This document shows, one piece after another, positions 8,902 through 51,022 of a stretch of DNA of 51,178 nt. The notes under the pieces were generated by a model. That model was not told where the DNA came from. It did not search any database and was given only the letters and a program-made list of their open reading frames with translations. Within the stretch, counting starts at the first letter, position 1; every line of letters begins with the position of its first letter. Source of the stretch: Methanosarcinaceae archaeon. Its GTDB lineage: Archaea > Halobacteriota > Methanosarcinia > Methanosarcinales > Methanosarcinaceae. The position numbers and the translations under genes were made by a program. The stretch covers positions 1 to 51,178 of the forward strand of contig JAUWQD010000016.1 of assembly GCA_030611265.1 (NCBI GenBank), written 5' to 3'.

Positions 8902-10077
8902 ATGCCATCAGCAACAACCCTTGCCGCACAAGCACGCGGGTATGCAAAAGCTGCCAGAACATTGGAAGATGAGAACAATCTCAAAAATGCCCGTGAACTC
9001 TACCTCAAGGCAGCCAAGTTATACAATGATGCATCCAAGATCTCAACCGATAAGACTGATACCAACACCCAGCGCGACCTTGCTGAGCATCTTCTCAACA
9101 AAGCACAATCGCTTAAACGTACCAGTGTCCACCAGTCAGGCTCTGGTGTGAGCAGTAGAGATGGTGGTGGAGGCAGTGAAACGGACGAGTCTTCACTGTC
9201 AAAGGACGACCTGATCTTAAAAGAGATCCCGAACATAGGGTTCGATGATATTGGCGGTCTTGAATCTGTGAAAGAGGAGATCAAAAAAGCGATCATCTAC
9301 CCGTTCACCCACAAAGACCTGTATAAGATGTATGGACAGAAAGCAGGCGAGGGAATTCTCCTCTACGGTCCACCGGGATGCGGCAAGACGATGATGGCAA
9401 AGGCTGCTGCAAAGGAATGCGGCGCGGATTTCATTAGCGTCAAGACAAGCAGCATTGTGAGTAAGTGGGTCGGTGCGTCCGAGAAGAACGTCAAACAGGT
9501 GTTTGAGACCGCACGCCAGTCCGAAAAAAGCATTGTCTTTTTCGATGAGATAGATTCCATTGCCGGACGGCGCAGTGAGAGTGAGGACTACGCCAAGCGC
9601 GTGGTAAACGAACTCCTCGCCCAGATGGACGGCGTTGATACAGCCGATGACGAACTCCTGATACTTGCAGCAACCAACGAGCCGTGGGCAATTGACCCTG
9701 CACTCCGCCGCCCCGGGAGGTTTAGTAAACTTGTGTACATTCCCGAACCTGATCTCGATGCCCGCGCTGCGATCTTCAAGATTAATATGAAAGGGCGCCC
9801 GATTGCTGATGATGTTAACGTGAACCGACTTGCCGAGATCACAGAATCCTATTCCGGTGCGGACATTTCCGCTATCTGCAAAGAGGCGGCGGATATCCCC
9901 CTTGGTGAGGCACTTCGCGGTGGCGAGGCTCGGAAGATCGAGGAGCGAGATTTTGTTAAGGTGCTGAAAGGGAGGAAGCCTTCAATTTTGAGCTGGTATG
10001 TTGAGGCTCGGAAGGAGGTTAAGAAGAGTGGGGAAGAAGCTGTGTTTGATGGGATTGTTAAAAGCAGGGTTGATTAG
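8902..10077 (+). CDS. Vps4/CdvC-like MIT-domain AAA+ ATPase
   Basis: N-terminal roughly 75-aa three-helix MIT-like region. Linker, then AAA domain with Walker A GPPGCGKT, Walker B VFFDEID and ATNEPWAIDPALRRPGRF. Start taken at the ATG at 8902 (GAGGA ribosome-binding site 5 nt upstream) rather than 8890. Confidence 0.8.
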   Translation: MPSATTLAAQARGYAKAARTLEDENNLKNARELYLKAAKLYNDASKISTDKTDTNTQRDLAEHLLNKAQSLKRTSVHQSGSGVSSRDGGGGSETDESSLSKDDLILKEIPNIGFDDIGGLESVKEEIKKAIIYPFTHKDLYKMYGQKAGEGILLYGPPGCGKTMMAKAAAKECGADFISVKTSSIVSKWVGASEKNVKQVFETARQSEKSIVFFDEIDSIAGRRSESEDYAKRVVNELLAQMDGVDTADDELLILAATNEPWAIDPALRRPGRFSKLVYIPEPDLDARAAIFKINMKGRPIADDVNVNRLAEITESYSGADISAICKEAADIPLGEALRGGEARKIEERDFVKVLKGRKPSILSWYVEARKEVKKSGEEAVFDGIVKSRVD

Positions 10078-10080
10078 AAG

Positions 10081-12531
10081 ATGGGAATTGATGTAAAAAA
10101 ATCGAAATCCGAAGAAAATTTGGGTATTGGTTTAAGCACTGGAGCAATTGTAGGATTTATTATTGGTTTTATTGTAAGAACAATTGCTTTTAAAATATCA
10201 GTTGGATTAATTGTAGGATTAATTTGTAGTATAATTGCTAGTAATATTAGTGTTGATAGAAAAAATAGTCCACTATACGGTTTGGTTTTTGGTTCAATAA
10301 TTGGCGCCGTTTTGGGTTTATTTTTTGGATTGATTTTAGGATCAGTTTTTGATGTCATATATAATTTCAATTCAATAGTGTTTACTAATCTAATTTTAGG
10401 AGGGATTGTTGGCGGATATACAATCTTTAAAATATTTTACGACGCTAAAAAAAGAACAATTGAATATGAAAATGAAATTAGTGACAATATTGACATAAAT
10501 ATTGACTCTCAAAATCCATTTATACTTGGTGTCAATAATTCATTTGAAATAACAGTAAATAATGGAACTGAAATCCCAATTACAAATATTAGTCTAATAT
10601 CAAATTTTCCAAATTCCTTGATTTGCAATGAAACTCTTAAACCAATAGACATAGTTCCTGCGAAATCATCAGAATCAAAAACTCTTTTATTAACTCCAAC
10701 AGTTGCTGAAGAAATCGATTTGGGCAACCTTGCAGTGACACTTGAAATTGACGGTTATACTTATGAAAAAGAACCTGTTAAAATCGGTATTTTTGATGTG
10801 ATTCCACCTGAAATTAACATTCAAATAAATGTCCCCAATCAACTTAAAGTCGGAATAGAAAATCCAGTTAAAATTACAGTGAAAAATCAATCGGATGTAC
10901 TTCTATCCAATGTTCAAATTGAAACCAACTTTTCAAGACTAATAACATGTGATGAAACTATAGTGCACACTGATGATATCCCTGCAAATTCATCTGAATA
11001 CACAGCCATATTCATAACTCCAAGAATTGCTGATAAAATTGATTTGGGCAACCTCAATTTATCATTTGACATTAATGAAACCACATACAAAAAAGAACCA
11101 ATCGCAATGGGAATTTATGAAGCAGTAGAAGTAACATCACATAAACCCACAAAATATTCAGATGACATCAATTCAGACCTTTCGATATCCCGCGAAACCG
11201 AATTCTATCAAGGTTTTATCCGCTTCAAAATGTCTGTCACCAACACTTCATCCTTTGTAGTGAACGATGTTGCTCTCGATTTTGATTATGATCACAACTT
11301 ATTGCGAATTGATAGACGTGAACCTGATTACCAGATCAAAAATGGTAGAACAATATTTGGAAACATCTCATCCAATTCATCAAAAACGATTGCAGTCTAC
11401 TTTGACCCAATGATGTGTTCTAAAAGTGCAGATATCAACTGTCAGGTAAATTACAAGGATGCAAAAGGACAACCTCAAACTACACACATGGAGCCAAAAA
11501 AGATCAGTGTTGTTTGTCCGATAATGGAAACTGAATCTGATATAAACATCGGACGGCTCAAAGAGTTTATTGAAAAACTGTCATATCGGGACAGTAAAGT
11601 GTACCAAATTCAGAATAGTTTTGATATTGATGTGCTAAAAAACATTTCCCGGGAAATTGTGCAAAAGCATGATGTTAAGCATATACGGACGCTTTTCACT
11701 AAAGATGGAAACACATGCGAAATATGGTATTATGGCAAGACAAAAGTGCATAGCCATGATATTGTCATAAAAATTACAATTTTAAGTGAAACACAAAACA
11801 TTGAACTTTTTGCTGCAACTCAAACCGTGGAATCACTGGCCGGACTTCTGGCAGAGGTTGGGCGTGAGTTGAAAGGTGCGATTGAAAGTAAGGTTACTGG
11901 CAATGTCCAGCAGGTAATCAATGTTTCAATCAAGGATTCAATTATCCAGCGAAGTAATCTTTTGAGTTATTGTGATATTAACGGTAATTGCAGTGGTGAT
12001 GTTGTAATTGAAGATAGTTTTGTGCAGCGTTCGGATGTAGGCACTGTTAAATCTGAAAATGAAGACGGAGTAAAAGATATGGATAAATCTAAAGTACACG
12101 AATATTTAGTTAGTATCGTAAAAGATGGATCAAATATTGAAGATATCAAGATCGAATACGGCCAAGTTATAGAGTATTTTAATCTTGATGAGAAAAAAGC
12201 TATTTTCCCATTGCTTACCATACTTGATGAAATTTGTAGCGAAAATCATCACAAAAATGAGCCCTTTTTATCTGCGATTGTAGTAAGTCAAAGCAAAAAA
12301 GGACTTGTACGCATTCCTGGACCAGGTTTTTTTAAAAAATGGATGGTACCACCATATAGAGATTATGATGGTCCGTCCGATGGTCCAGAAGCCCACAAAA
12401 TCCACGAACAAGAACTTGAACGTGTGTTTAACTACTGGCACAACGACAATAAAAACTCATGCCCTGCATGCGGTGAGATCGTGCCGGATGGTGCGAAGTT
12501 CTGCATGGAATGCGGTACAAAAATTGAATAA
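10081..12531 (+). CDS. polytopic membrane protein with glycine-zipper TM helices, two ~110-aa Ig-like repeats, CARDB-like plus unknown domain, C-terminal zinc ribbon
   Basis: Four predicted TM helices rich in GxxxG. Tandem repeats (ITVNNGTEIPITNISLISNF... / ITVKNQSDVLLSNVQIETNF...). The module VNYKD...ISVVCPIM is homologous to the cytoplasmic module of the 4281..6518 product. Ends CPACGEIVPDGAKFCMECGTKIE. Confidence 0.8.
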   Translation: MGIDVKKSKSEENLGIGLSTGAIVGFIIGFIVRTIAFKISVGLIVGLICSIIASNISVDRKNSPLYGLVFGSIIGAVLGLFFGLILGSVFDVIYNFNSIVFTNLILGGIVGGYTIFKIFYDAKKRTIEYENEISDNIDINIDSQNPFILGVNNSFEITVNNGTEIPITNISLISNFPNSLICNETLKPIDIVPAKSSESKTLLLTPTVAEEIDLGNLAVTLEIDGYTYEKEPVKIGIFDVIPPEINIQINVPNQLKVGIENPVKITVKNQSDVLLSNVQIETNFSRLITCDETIVHTDDIPANSSEYTAIFITPRIADKIDLGNLNLSFDINETTYKKEPIAMGIYEAVEVTSHKPTKYSDDINSDLSISRETEFYQGFIRFKMSVTNTSSFVVNDVALDFDYDHNLLRIDRREPDYQIKNGRTIFGNISSNSSKTIAVYFDPMMCSKSADINCQVNYKDAKGQPQTTHMEPKKISVVCPIMETESDINIGRLKEFIEKLSYRDSKVYQIQNSFDIDVLKNISREIVQKHDVKHIRTLFTKDGNTCEIWYYGKTKVHSHDIVIKITILSETQNIELFAATQTVESLAGLLAEVGRELKGAIESKVTGNVQQVINVSIKDSIIQRSNLLSYCDINGNCSGDVVIEDSFVQRSDVGTVKSENEDGVKDMDKSKVHEYLVSIVKDGSNIEDIKIEYGQVIEYFNLDEKKAIFPLLTILDEICSENHHKNEPFLSAIVVSQSKKGLVRIPGPGFFKKWMVPPYRDYDGPSDGPEAHKIHEQELERVFNYWHNDNKNSCPACGEIVPDGAKFCMECGTKIE

Positions 12532-38422: not shown

Positions 38423-38644
38423 TCACAACAGTTTGTTAAAATCTTCTACAGAAATCTCTGCTTGCTTGAGAATCTTTCGTAAAGTCCCTTTCTTTACGGG
38501 ATTATGAAGGGGCACGGAAAACACTCTGTAGTCTTTTTTGAGTACAACATGGTCGCCTTTTGCCATTCTGGCTTCGAATCCTATTTTTACAAGGGCTTTT
38601 ATGACCTTCTTTCCAGAAACAACAGGCAATTTATTATTATTCAC
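38423..38644 (-). CDS. hicA: HicA toxin (type II toxin-antitoxin system)
   Basis: GKKVIKALVKIGF...KGDHVVLKK...KKGTLRKILKQAEIS matches the HicA/YcfA family. Confidence 0.75.
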   Translation of the reverse strand: MNNNKLPVVSGKKVIKALVKIGFEARMAKGDHVVLKKDYRVFSVPLHNPVKKGTLRKILKQAEISVEDFNKLL

Positions 38645-38849
38645 TTACTTCCACCGCTGAAACTTCGGCGAAATTTGCCAATTCTCTTGCTTCTTCATTT
38701 ATAACTTCAAGCACCAGCCCGATTGCTTCTTTTATATTTGCAAGAGCATCCTCTTTTGTATCGCCTTGACTAATCGCTCCGGGAAGTTCCAAGCATTGAA
38801 CTGAATAGCCGCCCTCTTCTTCCTCTTCAAGTATTACGGTGTATTTCAT
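38637..38849 (-). CDS. hicB: HicB antitoxin
   Basis: MKYTVILEEEEEGGYSVQCLELPGAISQGDTKEDALANIKEAI matches the HicB family. Overlaps hicA by 8 nt. Confidence 0.7.
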   Translation of the reverse strand: MKYTVILEEEEEGGYSVQCLELPGAISQGDTKEDALANIKEAIGLVLEVINEEARELANFAEVSAVEVSE

Positions 38850-42266: not shown

Positions 42267-42911
42267 GTGGTTGCGATACTGTACAATATTATGGATGTCT
42301 GGGATACGCACCTGTTAACATTGCGGACGTTCGAGCATCTGTATATGTTTAGTATTGCACTGTTCATAGCCACGATCATCGGTATCAGTCTGGGGATATT
42401 TATTTATTCCCGGCCCGGACTTGCGAATCCTGTTTTGAACATACTCAATATTGTTGAAACAATTCCTGACATTGCACTGCTGGTACTGTTGCTTCCTTTT
42501 TTTGGACTTGGTGCAGGGCCCACCATTGTTGCATCGATCCTCTACTCCATACTTCCGATCGCAAGGAACACGTACACCGGTTTGAAGGATGTGGATCATG
42601 AATATATCTATATTGCAGAGGGAATTGGCCTGTCACCAAAAGAAATATTGTATAGGGTACGGATCCCGATGTCATTGCCGCTTATCGCAGGGGGTGTCAG
42701 GATTGCACTTGTGTTTACTATGGGTGTGGTCACTCTGGGCGGTTTGATTGCAGCGGGGGGTCTTGGGACTGCACTTCAGACAGGTATCTATCTTTATGAG
42801 ATCGATACAATTCTGGTTGCCGGAATATGGACTGGAATTCTGGCAGTCATCCTTGACGGGTTTGCGGGTATTGCTGAGAAAAAGATCACAGCGAGGTTTG
42901 GGTCATGGTAA
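42267..42911 (+). CDS. osmoprotectant ABC transporter permease (OpuCB-like)
   Basis: Six TM helices. EAA-like motif region. GTG start. Confidence 0.75.
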   Translation: MVAILYNIMDVWDTHLLTLRTFEHLYMFSIALFIATIIGISLGIFIYSRPGLANPVLNILNIVETIPDIALLVLLLPFFGLGAGPTIVASILYSILPIARNTYTGLKDVDHEYIYIAEGIGLSPKEILYRVRIPMSLPLIAGGVRIALVFTMGVVTLGGLIAAGGLGTALQTGIYLYEIDTILVAGIWTGILAVILDGFAGIAEKKITARFGSW

Positions 42912-43516
42912 CGCTTGACGTAATTGCAGCAGCCACTGTTGAGCATCTGGTTCTTGTATATACCACCTTATTTTTGAGCATTGCTATTGCGATCCCTCTT
43001 GCTTTCGCTTCCCTCTATAGCGAAAGACTGGCATTTGTGATTATGAGATTTGCCAATCTGGCTCAGGCAGTACCCAGTTTTGCAGTTGTTGCGATCGTGG
43101 TACCCCTGATCGGGATCGGTTTCACTCCTGCTGTGATAGCGATCATGCTGCGGGCTTTGTTGCCGATCGTGAAGAATACGTACATTGGATTGTCGAGCAT
43201 TGACCCCCAGTTGATAGATTATGCAAAAGGCATCGGCCTGACGGACTGGCAGATAAACCGTCATATAAGATTGCCAAACGCTTACCCTCCAATGTTCGCA
43301 GGAATTAAATTTGCAGCCATCCTGGCTAACAGTATTGCAGTACTGACTGCAATTATCGGAAGCGGAGGCTTGGGTGAACTGGTCTTTGAAGGACTTATCA
43401 GTTTTAGTACGGAAAGGCTTTTGGCAGGGGCATTGCCGGCTATTGGGCTTGCTTTGTTTTTGGATATGTCATTTACAGCATTGGAGAAGAGGTTGACTTC
43501 GGGGCAGCCACGATAG
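42905..43516 (+). CDS. osmoprotectant ABC transporter permease (OpuCD-like)
   Basis: Paralogous permease overlapping the upstream gene. Its last ~250 nt recur twice downstream. Confidence 0.75.
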   Translation: MVTLDVIAAATVEHLVLVYTTLFLSIAIAIPLAFASLYSERLAFVIMRFANLAQAVPSFAVVAIVVPLIGIGFTPAVIAIMLRALLPIVKNTYIGLSSIDPQLIDYAKGIGLTDWQINRHIRLPNAYPPMFAGIKFAAILANSIAVLTAIIGSGGLGELVFEGLISFSTERLLAGALPAIGLALFLDMSFTALEKRLTSGQPR

Positions 43517-43527
43517 ATGATATTGCT

Positions 43528-43824
43528 TTAAATCTCATTTTTATTTGTAAGCAATTCAATATAATCTTCTTGAGACATTGGACAATTAATTAAATCCAGT
43601 AATTCATTTTTTGAATTCAATTTTAGTTGTTTCTGCATTGCAGATAGTAAACTATCACTATATTCATTCGAACCATGGCTTATCTTTGTTTTAATGTGAG
43701 TCCTCTGATCGTTATAATAAAACCAGAAATAAGTATGATGAGTTTCCTCAACTTCAAATCCTTTATTTTGAAGAGAAGAAGCGATTTTCCTAGTTTTGAC
43801 CTTCAACTGAAACACCTTTAACAA
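43528..43824 (-). CDS. HicA/YcfA-like domain protein (tentative)
   Basis: KIASSLQNKGFEVEETHHTYF...HIKTKISHGSNE...LLSAMQKQLKL resembles the HicA pattern. First gene-distal member of a three-gene minus-strand cassette. Confidence 0.3.
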   Translation of the reverse strand: MLKVFQLKVKTRKIASSLQNKGFEVEETHHTYFWFYYNDQRTHIKTKISHGSNEYSDSLLSAMQKQLKLNSKNELLDLINCPMSQEDYIELLTNKNEI

Positions 43825-44356
43825 AACTAAGAATATTATATTTTATTTGTCTTGCTTTTTCAGTGAGGTTATCATCAGATTCTTTTGAATAGACATCCCA
43901 CATGACAAAAAATTCTTCCTCAAAATCCTCTTTTAGTTGTTCAATATCAGAAGCTACCAAAAAAATATCCAATTCTTCATAAAAACATTCCCATAAATCG
44001 CCAACAAAATTCAAAGTAATTTCAATTGGGTGATTAAGTTGAATTTTATGATCTCCCCATTTGATTCTATCAAATATGTGCGAACTATTATGAGCATGCA
44101 CATCTTTTTTCGATAATTTCAAAAAAGAAGTGATACTGTCATCTGTATATCTATATACAGAGCCTAAAGCCGGTGCAATTTTCGAGATTGCATTAATGTC
44201 AATGACTTCATGATGGTAAAGATTTTGAGTACGTGTATTCAACACTTTTAAACTTGATTCATTTACTGAAAACATGGATTGATGAGCTTTTTGAATCGTT
44301 GAAGATTCATATCCATTTGTAGGACTCAATAATTGAAATGAACTGGTACTATTCAC
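43790..44356 (-). CDS. hypothetical protein
   Basis: 188-aa ORF in the AT-rich cassette. Confidence 0.4.
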   Translation of the reverse strand: MNSTSSFQLLSPTNGYESSTIQKAHQSMFSVNESSLKVLNTRTQNLYHHEVIDINAISKIAPALGSVYRYTDDSITSFLKLSKKDVHAHNSSHIFDRIKWGDHKIQLNHPIEITLNFVGDLWECFYEELDIFLVASDIEQLKEDFEEEFFVMWDVYSKESDDNLTEKARQIKYNILSFVKGVSVEGQN

Positions 44357-44945
44357 TGATTAATCCCTCTAAAATATTTTCAGATTCTTTCATTGCATCG
44401 CTGTGTCTCTCAATAATGTTAGAAATTTGTTTTGTTTCATCTAATTGGCAATGGAAATTGAAATCTGCTTTCATTTCGTCGCTAGTATCTGGTTCAAGGA
44501 TTAACCGTACAATCATTTCATCAAACTTATATTTTATGATGCCACCTAATTGATAATCTTTATGAAATAACGACTCCAACTTTTCGATATTATGGCCATA
44601 TATATTTTCAAGCGTACTTTTTCCCATTTTAATATTGTACACAAAATTAAATCCAATGCTGGTGTATGGTGTTTCAGGAAGTGCATCAACATAAGATAAT
44701 ATCATTTGTGGCAACAAATCTACTTTATTTGGAATGTCAACTTTTGCATTTAATTGGAGCCGATCGGGATCGGCAAAAAAAGAGAAGTTCTCAGTTTCAA
44801 CAACCGAAAATGCAGGTGTATGAGTAAAAGAAACTACTTCATCCTCAATTATTCCTTTTTGGGATAGCCATTCCTTAGAAACAATTGATGGATTATGATT
44901 TTTAGCTAAAATAACAATATTTGCCCCTATTAAAGATATATCCAT
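44349..44945 (-). CDS. hypothetical protein
   Basis: 198-aa ORF in the AT-rich cassette. 8-nt overlap with the downstream gene. Confidence 0.45.
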   Translation of the reverse strand: MDISLIGANIVILAKNHNPSIVSKEWLSQKGIIEDEVVSFTHTPAFSVVETENFSFFADPDRLQLNAKVDIPNKVDLLPQMILSYVDALPETPYTSIGFNFVYNIKMGKSTLENIYGHNIEKLESLFHKDYQLGGIIKYKFDEMIVRLILEPDTSDEMKADFNFHCQLDETKQISNIIERHSDAMKESENILEGLISE

Positions 44946-45061: not shown

Positions 45062-45313
45062 GCCACGCCAAACGCTTACTCCCCAATGTTTGCAAAAATA
45101 AAATTTGCAGCCATCCTGACTAACAGTATTGCAGTACTGACTGCAATTATCGGAAGCGGAGGATTGGGTGCACTGGTCTTTGAAGGACTTATCAGTTTTA
45201 GCACAGAAAAGGTCATGGCAGGGGCACTGCCGGCGATTGGGTTTGCCTTGTTTTTGGATATGTCATTTACGGCACTGGAGAAGAGGTTGACTTCGAGGCA
45301 GGGTGGGGAGTGA
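45062..45313 (+). repeat. duplicated 3' fragment (~250 nt) of the opuCD-like permease gene; attachment-site-like repeat, copy 2
   Basis: About 90% DNA identity to 43268..43516. Encodes MFAKIKFAAILTNSIAVLTAIIGSGGLGALVFEGLISFSTEK...LEKRLTSRQGGE. No upstream gene body. Confidence 0.75.
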
Positions 45314-45336: not shown

Positions 45337-46131
45337 TCACCTTTTTACGATTATTGAAACATTGGGAAAAGTACGGTCTATACCTTCTTTAATCTCTTGA
45401 AAATTCCTGTCGGTAAAAGAAGGCTCAAATAATACACAAATAATATTTGTATAATACTTTGAATATTTTAGACATTTTGTAGTCAACGTATTTAGTGCTT
45501 GAGAGTCTGTGGGTCCTTTTACCTCAATTGCGATATGATCTATTATTATATCTGGTCTTGATGCACCAGTTTGTATCTCAACTTTTGCACTTGGAAAATG
45601 GGCTTTTAACCATCCTTGAAGTTCTGTATGATAACCAAATTCATTTTTATATCTTCTTGAAGGTTTAAAATTTTCTATAGATTCGGACACTTTGTAGAGT
45701 AAAGATTCCTTCTTTTTTTCTTCTTCATCACGCCTTTTCCACTGTTCTATTTCTTCAAGTGACCCCCACTTTTCATTTCCAAATCTATCTGAAAATTTAA
45801 CTAAACCCTTTGCTGTTTGTTCTTCTATGTATTTTCTTCTTTCGAAATCTTTTTGTTCTTCTTCATATTGTTTTTTAAAATCTCTCTGTTTTTTTTCATG
45901 TTGTCTTTTTCTTATCCAGATTGCTAACAATATAATTGCAAATAAAATAACAATGATTATTATAACTGTGTTTTGATTTATCCAATTAATAATTTGATTT
46001 CCTACATAAATAATCCAATCAATAATAGGTTTAATTATGTGCTTCCAAACAAAATAAATACATCCAATTATGATAATAATTAAAGCTGCTAAAGGATTAA
46101 TTTCATCATCGTATCTCTTTCTTCTTGCCAT
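45337..46131 (-). CDS. membrane-anchored protein with coiled-coil linker and C-terminal PD-(D/E)xK nuclease-like domain
   Basis: Two N-terminal TM helices. KR/E-rich coiled coil. C-terminal domain with the ordered motifs E (GYHTELQ), D (RPDIIID) and ExK (IAIEVKG). Confidence 0.5.
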   Translation of the reverse strand: MARRKRYDDEINPLAALIIIIIGCIYFVWKHIIKPIIDWIIYVGNQIINWINQNTVIIIIVILFAIILLAIWIRKRQHEKKQRDFKKQYEEEQKDFERRKYIEEQTAKGLVKFSDRFGNEKWGSLEEIEQWKRRDEEEKKKESLLYKVSESIENFKPSRRYKNEFGYHTELQGWLKAHFPSAKVEIQTGASRPDIIIDHIAIEVKGPTDSQALNTLTTKCLKYSKYYTNIICVLFEPSFTDRNFQEIKEGIDRTFPNVSIIVKR

Positions 46132-46261
46132 AATTGAAAACCCATTAAATATATTGTTAATAAGATATTATAATTTTACTATAGATATTTTTGCATTTGA
46201 TAGGCTTTGTGTATAAAGTCAAATTATGCTCCACTTTATGGGCAAAGTTCTACACTACGGG

Positions 46262-46403
46262 AACTGATCTTTGAATGACTTATCAGTTTTAGTACGGAAA
46301 GGCTTCTCGCAGGTGCACTGCCGGCTATTGGGCTTGCCCTCTTTTTGGATATGTCGTTTACGGCACTGGAGAAGAGGTTGACTTCGGGGCAGGGTGGGGA
46401 ATG
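46262..46403 (+). repeat. duplicated 3' fragment (~140 nt) of the opuCD-like permease gene; copy 3
   Basis: Matches 43378..43516 and 45172..45313. Ends ...gacttcggggcagggtggggaatga, like copy 2. Confidence 0.7.
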
Positions 46404-46643: not shown

Positions 46644-48089
46644 TTAATTATTTTTAATATTTTCTAATAAGTTCAATAATTGCTTCCGATAATATTTATC
46701 CTTTTCATAATCTAAGGCTTTTTTAATATATACTTTAGCGTTAACGAAATCCTCTTTGTTAATCAACAAGCGACTATAACTTGTACTTACCATAGTAATC
46801 CCTTTTTGATCATTCATTGTTTCTAACAATTCCAGACTATTTTTAAAAGCGTTTTCAGCTTCTCCCCATCGTGAACGTTTCTTGCTTAAAAGATTTCCAA
46901 GACTGTGATAAACCTGAGCTTTGTGATGCAATTTATCCTTTCCCAATTCCAGACTATTTTTAAAAGCGTTTTCAGCCTCTTCCCATCGTGAACGTTCCTT
47001 GCTTAAAAGAATTCCAAAACTGTGATAAACTTGAGCCTGTCCAAAAAAATCATCTACTTCTCTTAATCTCAGGCTTTGTTTATAAGCTTCTTCAGCCTCT
47101 TCCCATCGTGAACGTTTCTTGCTCAAAAGATTTCCAAGACTGTGATAAACCTGAGCTTGTCCAAAAGGATTATTTAATTTTTTGAGCAATTCCAGACTAT
47201 TTTTAAAAGCGTTTTCAGCCTCTCCCCATCGTGAACGTTCCTTGCTCAAAAGATTTCCAAGACTGTGATAAACCTGAGCTTGTCCAAAAGGATTATCTAT
47301 CTTTTCTTCTAATTCCAGGCTTTCTTTAAAAGCTTTTTCAGCTTTTTCCCAGTGCGATCGTTTCTTACTCCAAATTAGACCTACCAAATGAGCCGAAATA
47401 GCTGCATCTTTCATACTTTCGTCTGATTCACTCCTTTTTTTCCAAACGAGTGCTAAAAAAGAAATAGCTTTACCAAAATTGTTATTTTTATAGGCATATA
47501 AACCACGCATGAAATAAACATTACTTAGTTCTTCAGTCAGTGGTTTATCGGAAGGAGAAGATTTAGGAAATTTTTCTTCTATATATAAATCAATAACTCT
47601 TTCGGTTTCTTGCAGATTATATCTATTAGCCGTATCAAAAATTTGCCTGAATTTTTGAATTCCGTCTTTTTTGCTTTCTTCCATACCAATTGATAAACGT
47701 GCTATTTGAAGATCGAAATCCTCTATATCCAATGTGGGAACATTTTCCAATTCTTTCCTATGTCCTTTCATTGTTGCTAATACTTTTTGGCGAATCTCAA
47801 TTCCTGAACCATTCAGTTCTTCTAATGCATATTCTCTTATATCATCGTCAAATACCCAAGTCTTTATTGTCCTATCATGCCATATCGGAAAAGATTGAAG
47901 TTCTTCAATAAGTTTTTGAGAATTTCCATTTGCTTTTCCTGTATTATGTAATATTTTTTCTGCTAAATGATTGTTTAATAGATTTGGTACAGAAAGGACA
48001 TACAAAGATTCTCTTAATTCAGGCGAAAGTACATTTAACATATAGCCTATATCGAATTTATTTGTCATTTCAACTGACACTTGCACCAA
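46644..48089 (-). CDS. TPR-repeat protein with six near-identical ~40-aa repeats
   Basis: Repeats FGQAQVYHSLGNLLSKKRSRWEEAENAFKNSLEL. Distinct N-terminal roughly 250 aa. Overlaps the upstream gene by 20 nt. Confidence 0.7.
   Translation of the reverse strand: MVQVSVEMTNKFDIGYMLNVLSPELRESLYVLSVPNLLNNHLAEKILHNTGKANGNSQKLIEELQSFPIWHDRTIKTWVFDDDIREYALEELNGSGIEIRQKVLATMKGHRKELENVPTLDIEDFDLQIARLSIGMEESKKDGIQKFRQIFDTANRYNLQETERVIDLYIEEKFPKSSPSDKPLTEELSNVYFMRGLYAYKNNNFGKAISFLALVWKKRSESDESMKDAAISAHLVGLIWSKKRSHWEKAEKAFKESLELEEKIDNPFGQAQVYHSLGNLLSKERSRWGEAENAFKNSLELLKKLNNPFGQAQVYHSLGNLLSKKRSRWEEAEEAYKQSLRLREVDDFFGQAQVYHSFGILLSKERSRWEEAENAFKNSLELGKDKLHHKAQVYHSLGNLLSKKRSRWGEAENAFKNSLELLETMNDQKGITMVSTSYSRLLINKEDFVNAKVYIKKALDYEKDKYYRKQLLNLLENIKNN
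46829..47330. repeat. tandem ~120-bp DNA repeats inside the TPR gene
   Basis: Repeated blocks such as tctccccatcgtgaacgtt(c/t)cttgct(c/t)aaaagatttccaagactgtgataaacctgagc, at least four times. Confidence 0.6.
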
Positions 48090-48930
48090 ACTCCCTTATG
48101 TAAGGCAACAATTTTCTCTTGAATTCAGAATATCGAACTCCATCATTTATTGGATCTATCATACCTTTACAGAAATGGATATGATTTTGATTTGAACTTT
48201 CCATATATATTTTAGTTTCTTCAACAATATCATTAAATTCAAGGTATTCAGGAATATTTTGATCATAATCACTAAAATCTTTGAATTCATCGGCATTTCC
48301 TTGATTTAGAATACATATTTTTATATTTTCTAATAATGCCATTCTTCTACAAAAAAAATGTAAAAACCACTGATTAAAATCATTACTCAAACCATTAAAA
48401 CTTTTTTTCCCAAAACCAATTATAAATAAAAACGACATATCTCCGTTTAAGCTTTTAATGTCATTTATAAATTCAGTGAAAATGTAATCTATTTGTCTTT
48501 CTTTGGAAACATCTGGTGGCATTGATTCATTTAGAGATCCATATATATTTACGCTCTGACTAATACCTCCAAAGTCGATTGATCCTTCAGATGATGCTTG
48601 ATTTCCAATTTCCTGTATAATAGGTAATGGTAATTTATCATATTTTGCTTCTATGTCACGGAGAGAGTTATAAAATTTTTTAAATGTCTCCCCTTCACCT
48701 AAATTAATTGTTAATTCTTCCAGAAAAGTATATTTTTTGATTTGAACATCTGAGTCATAATGCACCCATCCGATTGAATAATCTTGAGCATTATTACTTA
48801 TCCATTCCCGAACATCCTTCAATTCCTGGGAATCAGAAATACCAAGAGCTGAAAATTTTTCATCACCTTCAAGCCATTTTTGAATGGATATTTTATAATA
48901 TCCCCGATCACACCAGAGAATTTCAGCCAT
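48070..48930 (-). CDS. hypothetical protein (middle gene of three-gene cassette operon)
   Basis: 286-aa ORF. Contains EGSIDFGGISQSVNI, the same motif as the C-terminus of the upstream small membrane protein. Confidence 0.55.
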   Translation of the reverse strand: MAEILWCDRGYYKISIQKWLEGDEKFSALGISDSQELKDVREWISNNAQDYSIGWVHYDSDVQIKKYTFLEELTINLGEGETFKKFYNSLRDIEAKYDKLPLPIIQEIGNQASSEGSIDFGGISQSVNIYGSLNESMPPDVSKERQIDYIFTEFINDIKSLNGDMSFLFIIGFGKKSFNGLSNDFNQWFLHFFCRRMALLENIKICILNQGNADEFKDFSDYDQNIPEYLEFNDIVEETKIYMESSNQNHIHFCKGMIDPINDGVRYSEFKRKLLPYIREFGASVS

Positions 48931-49226
48931 TATTTCTCACATTTATCTAAATTAAGGTCAACATTTTGGGTTATGCCTTTAAATGATATATTTCCTTTTG
49001 CTGTTGCCCCATTTCCGATAGATTGACTAATTGATTTTTTTTGTTCAAAATCATTCTTTTTTTTGTTTATTACTAAATATTTCAATATAATGCCAGCAAT
49101 AATTGTAGATATTATTACAATTAGTCCCACTTTTAATTCCAAGTTTTTAATTATAAGAATCGTATATGCAACAATCATTAAACTATATCCAACATATTCT
49201 ATTGTTTTCATATTATTTTCCTTCAT
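48930..49226 (-). CDS. small membrane protein (two TM helices) with C-terminal GNISFKGITQNVDLN motif
   Basis: 98-aa ORF whose start overlaps the stop of the next gene. Two hydrophobic helices. Confidence 0.5.
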   Translation of the reverse strand: MKENNMKTIEYVGYSLMIVAYTILIIKNLELKVGLIVIISTIIAGIILKYLVINKKKNDFEQKKSISQSIGNGATAKGNISFKGITQNVDLNLDKCEK

Positions 49227-49640: not shown

Positions 49641-49762
49641 TATATCATTTTTCGTAATAATATATGGTTTTGTGCAGTTTTTTCATTGTACTGCACAAAA
49701 ATAACACATTTTGTTCAATACAGTGCATAAACATTTAAACTATTGTGCAGTATACAATATTT

Positions 49763-51022
49763 ATGAGACAAAGTATACAACGACAAAAACTGGAAAAGGA
49801 ACGGGTAGCAGGTTCTGATCTTGTTAAAAGAGATGTTGCCGAGAACATAGAATCATATTTGCGCCATGACATCATAAAAGTTGTAACCGGGATAAGACGA
49901 AGTGGCAAATCCATATTTTGCTTTATGGTGCTTGATGATGTTGATTTTGGATATGTCAATTTCGATGAAAAGGAAATTGCAGAGCTGGATAATTATGACG
50001 AGATATTGAGATATGTTCAGGAATTTTATGGCGATGTTGAATTTCTTTTCCTTGATGAAATCCAGAATCTTAATAACTGGGAACTGTGGGTCAACAGCCT
50101 GCACAGAAGAGGGTACAATCTGCTCATCACAGGCTCCAATGCAAAATTACTCAGCCGTGAGCTGGCAACACATTTGACAGGCAGACACATATCTGTGGAA
50201 CTTTTTCCATTTTCATTCAAGGAATATCTGGATGCAGTTGGGTTTGACATCAAAGATGAATATATCGAAGAAGAAATTGGCATTATTCTCAATTATCTCA
50301 AAAAATATATGGAAATAGGTGGTTTTCCGGAAGTTGTAGTAAAAGGATACGATCACAAATACCTCCAGACGCTTTTCGATAGCATCATTCTCAAAGACGT
50401 TGTCCAGCGGCACAATGTGCGATATGCAGATGACCTGTATAATCTTGCCAAATTCCTTATGTCATCTTTTTCAAACGAAATATCCTACACTAAATTGAAA
50501 AATACACTGAACTTTCGGAGTGTAAATACTGTTCAGAGCTATGTCAGATACCTTGAAGACACGTATCTCATATTCCATCTGGACATGTTTTCATTCAAAC
50601 AAAGAGAGCAGATTAAATCTCCAAAAAAGATGTATGTCATAGATACCGGAATGGCAAATGCCGTATCATTCAAATTTTCGGAGGACATCGGAAATATGAT
50701 GGAGAATACCGTTGCAGTGGAACTCTTAAGACAAAAATCGAACTCAATTTCACGTATTGAGGTATATTACTGGAAAGATACACAGCACCGCGAAATTGAT
50801 TTTGTCATCAAGGAAGGACCGGACATATCACAATTGATACAAGTATGTTATAATATTAATGATCTAAAGACAAGAGAACGGGAATTGAGATCGCTTGTCG
50901 GGGCAGCAAAAGAATTGAATTGCAATAATCTTCTTGTAATTACATGGGATTATGATAATACAGAAGAATACAATGGCAACAGTATCCGATATGTGCCGCT
51001 TTGGAAATGGTTGCAAAAATAG
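49763..51022 (+). CDS. COG1373-type AAA ATPase (AAA_14 plus DUF4143-like C-terminal domain)
   Basis: Walker A VVTGIRRSGKS. Walker B FLFLDEIQ. C-terminal domain of the kind found in archaeal COG1373 proteins. Start taken at the internal ATG. Confidence 0.65.
   Translation: MRQSIQRQKLEKERVAGSDLVKRDVAENIESYLRHDIIKVVTGIRRSGKSIFCFMVLDDVDFGYVNFDEKEIAELDNYDEILRYVQEFYGDVEFLFLDEIQNLNNWELWVNSLHRRGYNLLITGSNAKLLSRELATHLTGRHISVELFPFSFKEYLDAVGFDIKDEYIEEEIGIILNYLKKYMEIGGFPEVVVKGYDHKYLQTLFDSIILKDVVQRHNVRYADDLYNLAKFLMSSFSNEISYTKLKNTLNFRSVNTVQSYVRYLEDTYLIFHLDMFSFKQREQIKSPKKMYVIDTGMANAVSFKFSEDIGNMMENTVAVELLRQKSNSISRIEVYYWKDTQHREIDFVIKEGPDISQLIQVCYNINDLKTRERELRSLVGAAKELNCNNLLVITWDYDNTEEYNGNSIRYVPLWKWLQK

Follow-up and report, generated by a model that had tools for sequence, protein, structure and literature searches.

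Introduction

Receptors of the NLR type (nucleotide-binding oligomerization domain (NOD)-like receptors) that engage cell-death effectors through short amyloid motifs connect fungal, animal and bacterial immunity, and archaeal examples are barely described. The principle that such a receptor and its effector can be coupled by a short common motif is already known, including in Methanosarcinales, where Bell/NLR motif pairs have been found. Here we describe three adjacent genes (the trio) in a stretch of 51,178 nucleotides from a Methanosarcinaceae archaeon (GenBank assembly GCA_030611265.1, contig JAUWQD010000016.1), which we call the window. Gene 1 encodes a small membrane protein, gene 2 a NOD-like protein, and gene 3 a protein with a winged-helix domain (WHD), a helical arm and tetratricopeptide repeats (TPRs). 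We favour, with a probability of about 0.5, the reading that the trio is a self-contained mobile conflict cassette, serving abortive infection or regulated cell death and built on a split, inactive NLR/STAND-like receptor. Parts of this reading are more secure than the whole. It is very probable that the trio is a conserved three-gene module in which a split, inactive STAND-like receptor is linked to an effector by a motif, and a function in conflict or cell death is probable, if less firmly so.

The closest described systems are the NLR amyloid signalling pairs, which include HET-S/NWD2 with its fungal amyloid signalling sequence (FASS) and the Bell/NLR pairs of bacteria and archaea with the bacterial sequences BASS1-10 (Dyrka et al. 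2020, bioRxiv 10.1101/2020.01.06.895854). As in the trio, the genes of these pairs are adjacent, collinear and overlapping or nearly so, and a motif of ~25 aa is common to the effector C-terminus and to a TPR-bearing STAND-type receptor. Also alike are the composition of the motif (rich in Q, N, G, V and I, poor in K, P and L), its copy number (one or two on the effector, one on the receptor), the use of membrane-targeting or alternative enzymatic effectors, the self-similar TPR repeats and the occurrence in Methanosarcinales-type archaea. Unlike these pairs, the trio has its receptor divided over two genes, with a NOD that lacks Walker A and B motifs and matches no NB-ARC or NACHT profile. 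Its receptor motif lies in an internal NOD loop rather than at the N-terminus, and its effector is a constitutive hairpin of two transmembrane (TM) segments with no detectable similarity to Bell or HeLo domains.

A second relevant system is Bab/Agp of Escherichia coli ECOR25, in which a 109-aa effector and a TPR protein with a common amyloid motif provide antiphage abortive infection (Ibarlosa et al. 2024, bioRxiv 10.1101/2024.11.07.622273). Both systems have a tiny effector (93-98 aa in the trio) that is hydrophobic in its N-terminal part and carries the motif at its C-terminus, a TPR partner, no need for a canonical active NOD, and a location in a defence or variable island. Unlike Bab/Agp, the trio places the receptor-side motif on a separate NOD-like protein, has a STAND winged helix on its TPR protein, and lacks GreA/B-C or PIN domains; the Bab/Agp motif belongs to the family BASS11.

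Inactive STAND proteins are known as the iSTAND components of ternary conflict systems that also encode MoxR and vWA proteins (Kaur et al. 2020, eLife, PMC7159879). In these systems, as in the trio, an inactive STAND fold is the constant core of a three-gene arrangement, and swappable effectors are recruited through an adaptor element encoded in adjacent genes. However, no MoxR AAA+ or vWA gene is present in the gene lists of any trio locus, the adaptor of the trio is a 27-aa disordered motif rather than a globular effector-associated domain (EAD) or Death-like domain, and its WHD and TPRs are encoded by a separate gene. The domain order of the trio (NOD, WHD, helical arm, TPR) is that of STAND NTPases of the MalT/PH0952 type, but in those NTPases one polypeptide carries the whole architecture, together with active Walker motifs and outputs such as DNA-binding domains, and they have neither a shared motif nor a partner effector. 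Our literature search found no published description of this cassette. What appears to be new is the pair of protein families without a model in the libraries searched, the split and dead receptor, the internal receptor motif and the minimal two-TM effector. Neither of the unknown proteins is connected by sequence to a solved structure or to a Pfam family.

Gene organization and conservation of the trio

The trio was pointed out by an earlier note, prepared by a model from the sequence alone, as a three-gene operon on the minus strand, and its open reading frames (ORFs) are indeed collinear there: 48930-49226 (98 aa), 48070-48930 (286 aa) and 46644-48089 (481 aa). The stop codon of gene 1 and the start codon of gene 2 have one base in common (TAATG at 48930), as had been reported. 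A 20-nt overlap of genes 2 and 3 at 48070-48089 was also reported, and this exists only if gene 3 begins with the TTG at 48089. With the ATG at 48068 (MTNKFD...), which is the start of the gene 3 protein in the homologous loci L010 and L011, gene 3 spans 46644-48068 (474 aa) and is set apart from gene 2 by a 1-nt spacer. Likewise, 98 aa is the longest ORF of gene 1 (48930-49226), but its true start is probably the second ATG, at 49211, because the NCBI/Logan gene calls give a 93-aa product and all homologues begin there (MK(T/K)IEYVGY). A fusion of genes 2 and 3 by readthrough or frameshift was considered and rejected: the start of gene 3 lies in a different frame, and the full-length representatives of the gene 2 family all end at ~275 aa.

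The earlier note would have given up the idea of a module if the three genes never occurred together elsewhere and if the motif described below had no conservation beyond this pair of proteins. In fact, the order small protein, middle protein, TPR protein is kept in all related loci that were fetched, ~12 of them independent and with differing flanking genes (the window, whose source scaffold is L001, and L003, L004-8, L009, L010, L011-12, L013-16, L018/19, L020, L021/22, L025 and L026/27). In the distant loci L018, L020, L025 and L026 the middle protein is 16-40% identical, and both families retain the motif in every locus, down to ~20% identity of the host protein. The proposal of a self-contained module on an inserted low-GC cassette is supported, and a role in defence or signalling is plausible.

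The family is rare. Among 5.8 billion proteins, relatives of gene 2 fall into only 7 clusters (at 90% identity), and a set of 1.84 billion proteins yielded 63 representatives, 45 full-length and 18 fragments, with all 45 full-length ones standing alone at ~270-290 aa. A close relative was present in 1 of 185,579 species genomes, a metagenome-assembled genome of Candidatus Methanoperedens. Searches for related loci with narrow alignments gave one genome match and seven metagenome matches; a profile of 41 gene 2 sequences added one further protein, and a profile of the gene 3 N-terminus found four proteins.

A variant arrangement was observed in the distant trio of L018 (2855-4651; also in L019), where the TPR gene is short (306 aa) and the gene after it encodes a 598-aa protein that has hydrophobic segments and, at its N-terminus, a DnaJ domain.

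A peptide motif common to genes 1 and 2

Genes 1 and 2 have in common a motif whose conserved unit is 27-28 aa long. The effector-side copy (48954-49034, minus strand; aa 65-91 of gene 1, SISQSIGNGATAKGNISFKGITQNVDL) is at the C-terminus, past the second TM segment and a short charged linker. The receptor-side copy (48544-48624, minus strand; aa 103-129 of the 286 aa of gene 2, PIIQEIGNQASSEGSIDFGGISQSVNI) is internal, between helices 80-98 and 139-162 and within a loop at aa 100-135. BLASTP aligns the two copies with 13/27 identities and 21/27 positives (E 3e-6), and a comparison of family against family by hhalign returns E 1.3e-6. The 16 residues that were first described as nearly identical are in fact identical at 7 of 16 positions and are a part of the longer unit. 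The accompanying view that the motif reflects selection rather than a recent duplication is well founded, since the protein segments are conserved while their DNA is identical at 44/81 positions and at only 9/27 third codon positions, which rules out recent duplication or gene conversion. Within the window the motif pattern occurs in these two genes and otherwise only in one spurious match in a TM segment.

The consensus of 41 NOD-like proteins reads [ILV]-x-I-x-Q-x-[IV]-G-N-x-[IAS]-x-[AS]-x-G-x-[IV]-x-[FIY]-x-x-[NI]-x-Q-x-[VAI]-x-[IVL]-N, in which the two glutamines are present in 34/41 and 36/41 members and a glycine in 29/41. Reduced to its pattern (h-x-h-x-Q-x-h-G-N...G-x-h-x-h-x-x-h-x-Q-x-h-x-h, where h is hydrophobic), it consists of alternating hydrophobic residues with G/N turns. 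The core I-x-Q-x-[IV]-G resembles the (I/V)-Q-(I/V)-G core of RHIM and BASS3 only loosely. Compared with the rest of the same 41 proteins, the receptor-side motif is enriched in Q (2.4x), N (1.9x), I (1.8x), G (1.65x) and V (1.4x), as well as in T and A, and depleted in K (0.59x), P (0.42x) and L (0.38x), as well as in F, R and W. Bacterial amyloid signalling sequences, at ~25 aa, have the same bias (Dyrka et al. 2020), so that the receptor side of the trio has both the composition and the alternating beta-type pattern of this class.

The effector-side motif is kept in six close loci and is single in the clade of the window, but it is doubled in four lineages with a TM effector (L018, L020, L025 and L026), with one copy always present on the receptor side. 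Doubling on the effector with a single receptor copy is the pattern of HET-s, BASS1 and BASS6 (Dyrka et al. 2020). As in the FASS and BASS pairs, the motif links an effector C-terminus to a receptor whose gene is adjacent and collinear, and this arrangement is present in ~12 loci. Furthermore, an effector motif scores higher with the receptor motif of its own locus than with those of other loci (permutation p 4.5e-4 with all 12 loci; 0.005 when L024 is left out), and this tendency is retained when only divergent lineages are considered (2/720 and 2/120). The covariation between partners is modest.

Genes 2 and 3 as a probable split receptor

The protein encoded by gene 2 (48070-48930, minus strand) was previously described as an effector of unknown fold. 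It has no match in Pfam, NCBIfam, PADLOC, PHROG or the sequences in PDB (E 10), and no Pfam family recurs among 41 members of its family even at E 5. A model made with AlphaFold2 from a seven-sequence alignment predicts an alpha/beta protein at medium confidence (predicted local distance difference test score, pLDDT, 65), and Foldseek places this model, weakly (E 0.014), in the fold class of Cdc6/Orc1 and RdrA. Rather than an effector of unknown fold, gene 2 most likely encodes a stand-alone NOD-like (STAND/AAA+) domain without Walker motifs. We compared it with the definition of STAND/NLR-like proteins by Leipe et al. (2004). The predicted fold has the AAA+-like alpha/beta core of a NOD, and the family matches none of the STAND sequence profiles (NB-ARC, NACHT, AAA_16 and similar). 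Neither Walker A (GxxxxGK[ST]) nor Walker B (hhhhD[DE]) is present. At the Walker A position after beta1 the 41-member alignment has h-h-h-V-x-D-x-x-E, without G-K-[ST], and strand beta3 at the Walker B position (FLFIIGF) carries no acidic residue in any of the 41 members. Given the replaced P-loop and the missing acid, the alignment argues that gene 2 is a catalytically inactive NOD-like domain.

The motif is part of this predicted domain. It appears to be inserted into the AAA+ core after alpha2 and ahead of beta3, roughly at the site of the initiator-specific motif of ORC/Cdc6, a position that would presumably face the neighbouring protomers in an oligomer. In the monomer model residues 100-135, including the motif, are unstructured (pLDDT <30). 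A separate conserved feature of the family is W-x-D-R-x-x-x-K at aa 6-13, which is invariant or nearly so in the 41 members and precedes the first strand of the NOD-like fold.

Gene 3 (46644-48068, minus strand) was correctly recognized as encoding a TPR protein (Pfam TPR_12, E 2.4e-20). Its N-terminal 200 aa (47469-48068) are predicted to form a STAND-type WHD at aa ~13-85 followed by a helical arm. The first 190 aa, which were modelled independently (pLDDT 75), have a mean column identity of 84% and are better conserved than gene 2. In the definition cited above, NOD, WHD and repeats follow one another on a single polypeptide, and here they are divided between separate genes. The main argument for a split receptor is that two independent models give consecutive modules of one architecture, which is then continued by the TPR repeats. 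We consider it most likely that genes 2 and 3 together are a split, catalytically dead STAND/NLR-like receptor. Gene 3 is therefore not merely the scaffold that had been suggested, because it carries the WHD that completes the NOD; most likely it is the sensor arm, with the TPR array as the ligand sensor.

The TPR-like tandem array (46827-47342, minus strand) has ~123-nt units that encode 39-41 aa. TRF reports 4.3 copies of a 123-nt unit with 81% matches, and at the protein level four core repeats are 66-78% identical. The tandem array of ~120-bp repeats given earlier for 46829-47330 is thus real, but six almost identical 40-aa repeats are not seen. The source scaffold (L001, which is ENA ERZ4220937 NODE_32) has a run of 100 N inside the array (L001 3798-3897), which the window omits by joining the flanks directly and in frame at 47295/47296. 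The intact 481-aa ORF may be an artefact of this removal, and with the gap in the array neither the repeat number nor the length of 481 aa is established. Copy number does vary between relatives, as had been anticipated: some have 3 core repeats, others 4 or more, and others 9. The nine-repeat proteins, in L009 (1837-3831) and L003 (10824-12854), have units of 39-41 aa that are ~90% identical and differ mostly at a few positions (e.g. HLA[QHY]VYH and W[KN]EA[EK]E[FA]Y[KE]), as is typical of the repeats of NLR sensors that diversify rapidly.

Gene 1 and its replacement by a PRTase-CE gene

The protein encoded by gene 1 (48930-49226, minus strand) has hydrophobic segments at aa 8-26 and 33-53 (Kyte-Doolittle), which agrees with the two TM segments that were noted for it, at a length that is probably 93 rather than 98 aa. 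Two TM segments, a charged linker and the C-terminal motif make up its layout. It has no match in Pfam (E 0.1), PADLOC or PHROG, and at the same Pfam threshold no profile indicates a Bell/HeLo-type helical bundle with an N-terminal hydrophobic helix.

In one related locus, L024, the product encoded upstream of the NOD-like gene is a PRTase-CE protein (PF24390, E 3.4e-41) instead of a TM protein. This swap of the effector domain is solid. The evidence for a motif on the swapped protein is suggestive only. Only its C-terminal tail, KERRQIIADNIVTEHEIELTDIDQSSA, matches the NOD-family profile, and this tail falls exactly on motif columns 102-128, with an hhalign E of 0.007 and a low probability. 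A second copy specific to this locus is visible by eye (QKVATDLKAKKVIIKRVTQK versus QQVGTNLAAEESEVSHVNQH); the motif is probably doubled in the PRTase-CE tail. The small protein of the trio had been taken for a membrane sensor. Because it sits at the effector position, and because a PRTase-CE effector takes that place in L024, it is more likely to be an effector.

Proposed mechanism and points against it

The mechanism that we propose is drawn by analogy with HET-S/NWD2, with the Bell/NLR pairs and with the experimentally characterized Bab/Agp. Binding of a ligand by the TPR arm would cause the complex of NOD-like and WHD-TPR proteins to oligomerize, and the loop motifs of adjacent protomers would thereby be brought together into a cross-beta (beta-arch) template. 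This template would recruit and polymerize the effector tails, and the clustered membrane hairpins would then form a lesion by which the cell is killed or arrested. Where PRTase-CE takes the place of the hairpin, this step would instead switch on an enzymatic effector. Amyloid templating as the mode of coupling falls somewhat short of even odds in our estimate. More tentative still is the joint proposal that the trio is an NTP-independent, two-gene archaeal 'split NLR' that displays its motif from a pseudo-NOD loop, such that assembly of a ring or filament itself builds the cross-beta seed, and that on this seed a minimal two-TM hairpin, or else a PRTase-CE effector, polymerizes to form a lethal assembly. 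For the conflict reading we also count the genomic context, namely the low-GC island, the neighbouring PDC-S01 and TM-nuclease genes, and the surroundings of the trio in L018, where toxin-antitoxin modules (DUF433/DUF5615, PIN_2, XisH/XisI and ParE) are found.

Several points weigh against this reading. The motif is internal in the receptor, at odds with its place at the extreme N-terminus in all described NLR amyloid signalling pairs, and, unlike BASS, the copies on the effector are highly charged and rich in K. Covariation of the partners is not significant within the close clade of six loci (p 0.2-0.3), and a BLASTP comparison of the L024 PRTase-CE protein with its partner gives no significant motif match. 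The NOD assignment depends on a model with a pLDDT of 65 and a Foldseek E of 0.014, with no link through STAND sequence profiles. A loss of NTP binding would leave the switch or the oligomerization with no evident driver. The cross-beta state is one that we infer only from composition, length, copy number and genomic logic, and oligomerization, amyloid templating, membrane damage and the immune role are likewise inferred. Relatives of the trio were not found on viral contigs, and we know of no immune phenotype for it.

Even with these reservations, the cassette suggests that a receptor of this kind can be divided between genes and can do without the NTPase switch, that a templating motif need not be terminal, and that a bare TM hairpin can be an executioner. 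If the split-NLR proposal is true, it would represent an unrecognized amyloid signalling architecture, invisible to mining for Bell and NB-ARC/NACHT domains. The two new families and the motif could serve to mine systems that searches based on Bell and NB-ARC have missed. If confirmed, the trio would also offer a tiny and tractable model, composed of a 93-aa effector and two soluble proteins, for how receptor oligomerization nucleates a functional amyloid.

Alternative explanations

The rival that survives best dispenses with amyloid, and we regard it as unlikely. The 27-aa segment would be a linear docking peptide that binds, extended, to the TPR groove or to a site on the NOD-like protein, with the NOD loop and the effector tail in competition for that one site; at rest the protein's own loop would occupy the site, and a ligand would free either the site or the effector. 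TPR domains classically bind short extended peptides, the disorder of the motif in the monomer model suits such a peptide, and an internal position on the receptor side suits an autoinhibitory pseudo-ligand. The K-rich, charged effector copies, which are unusual for amyloid cores, also speak for docking, and the logic of one copy on the core and one on the effector is found in the neighbourhoods of non-amyloid EAD adaptors as well (PMC7159879). However, a constant motif is an awkward fit to the TPR repeats, since it is in these repeats that the system varies most, both by copy number and at hypervariable positions. Doubling of the motif on the effector only is expected from templating of a two-rung beta-solenoid and not from 1:1 docking, and the Q/N/G/I/V bias with alternating hydrophobic residues and G/N turns fits amyloid signalling motifs.

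A housekeeping or regulatory role is improbable. Under it, the pseudo-ATPase and the TPR protein would assemble, anchor or regulate the small membrane protein, and the shared segment would be a beta-strand for stable heteromeric association. Genes 1 and 2 match no PADLOC defence model, the absence from viral contigs is in keeping with such a role, inactive ATPase-fold proteins are often scaffolds, and the L003 trio lies among ordinary metabolic genes. Set against this are the extreme sparsity and patchiness of the family in all three searched collections, genomic positions that vary between loci, the low-GC island around the copy in the window, the PRTase-CE protein at the gene 1 position in L024, and the self-similar, copy-number-variable TPR repeats typical of NLR sensors. 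These are hallmarks of an accessory conflict system, and they disfavour housekeeping.

Finally, the shortness of the match, the AT-rich sequence with its biased amino-acid composition and the low identity of the original 16-mer might suggest a chance low-complexity match, or a functionless duplication remnant, in ORFs that are unrelated neighbours, but this artefact reading is refuted by the conservation data: the BLASTP and hhalign E values, the motif retained in both families in all loci, the near-random identity of third codon positions, the near-absence of the pattern elsewhere in the window, and the kept gene order in loci that are not assembly duplicates, their proteins being 16-87% identical and their flanks different.

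Genomic context and neighbouring genes

The region of the trio has a GC content of 0.29-0.34 compared with ~0.42 elsewhere, and this low-GC island is situated on the downstream side of an OpuA-type ABC operon. From the permease gene of that operon (42905-43516), the 3' end occurs as three direct copies: the intact one at 43273-43507, a second at 45067-45301 (91% identical), and a degenerate third at 46158-46392 (plus strand; ~88-91% over ~135-148 nt by blastn), which forms the left boundary of the trio. The copies divide the island into three cassettes, of which the trio is the third, as if elements had been inserted serially at one site. This bounding by repeats supports an earlier remark that the trio lies on an integrated cassette; no integrase was seen within the window. 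Searches of the island with Rfam found no families, and promoter and terminator scans gave background levels with a sigma-70 model, which is inapplicable to archaea.

The other cassettes encode proteins of their own. In the first, two overlapping ORFs on the minus strand (43790-44356 and 44349-44945; 188 and 198 aa) have no Pfam, PADLOC or PHROG match. A 75-aa ORF at 45086-45313 (plus strand) is a fragment of the permease C-terminus. The middle cassette has a single gene at 45337-46131 (minus strand) for a 264-aa protein with N-terminal TM segments and a K/E-rich coiled region. Its C-terminal region matches a phage 'nuclease' family (phrog_28707, E 1.6e-7) and has a PD-(D/E)xK-like D...E-x-K pattern, and the protein could be a membrane-anchored nuclease effector. 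On the other side, divergent from the trio, the gene at 49745-51022 (plus strand) encodes an AAA_14 and DUF4143 ATPase of the PADLOC candidate defence family PDC-S01 (E 3e-116). This gene was considered as a member of the system and rejected, as it is absent beside the trio in other loci.

Other features are more distant. The window also encodes the archaeal proteins Mch, Trm1 and Trm5/Taw2. Pfam calls on the source contig indicate a HicB-like/HicA toxin-antitoxin pair at ~38423-38849 (minus strand; L001 12344-12770), just past a gene of the IF-2B family. Within 9001-12531 the GC content falls from 0.52 at 9-10 kb, in an AAA ATPase gene, to 0.31 at 10-11 kb, and the low-GC side falls inside an 816-aa ORF (10081-12531), with a C-terminal zinc ribbon as its sole recognizable feature; this may be another inserted segment.

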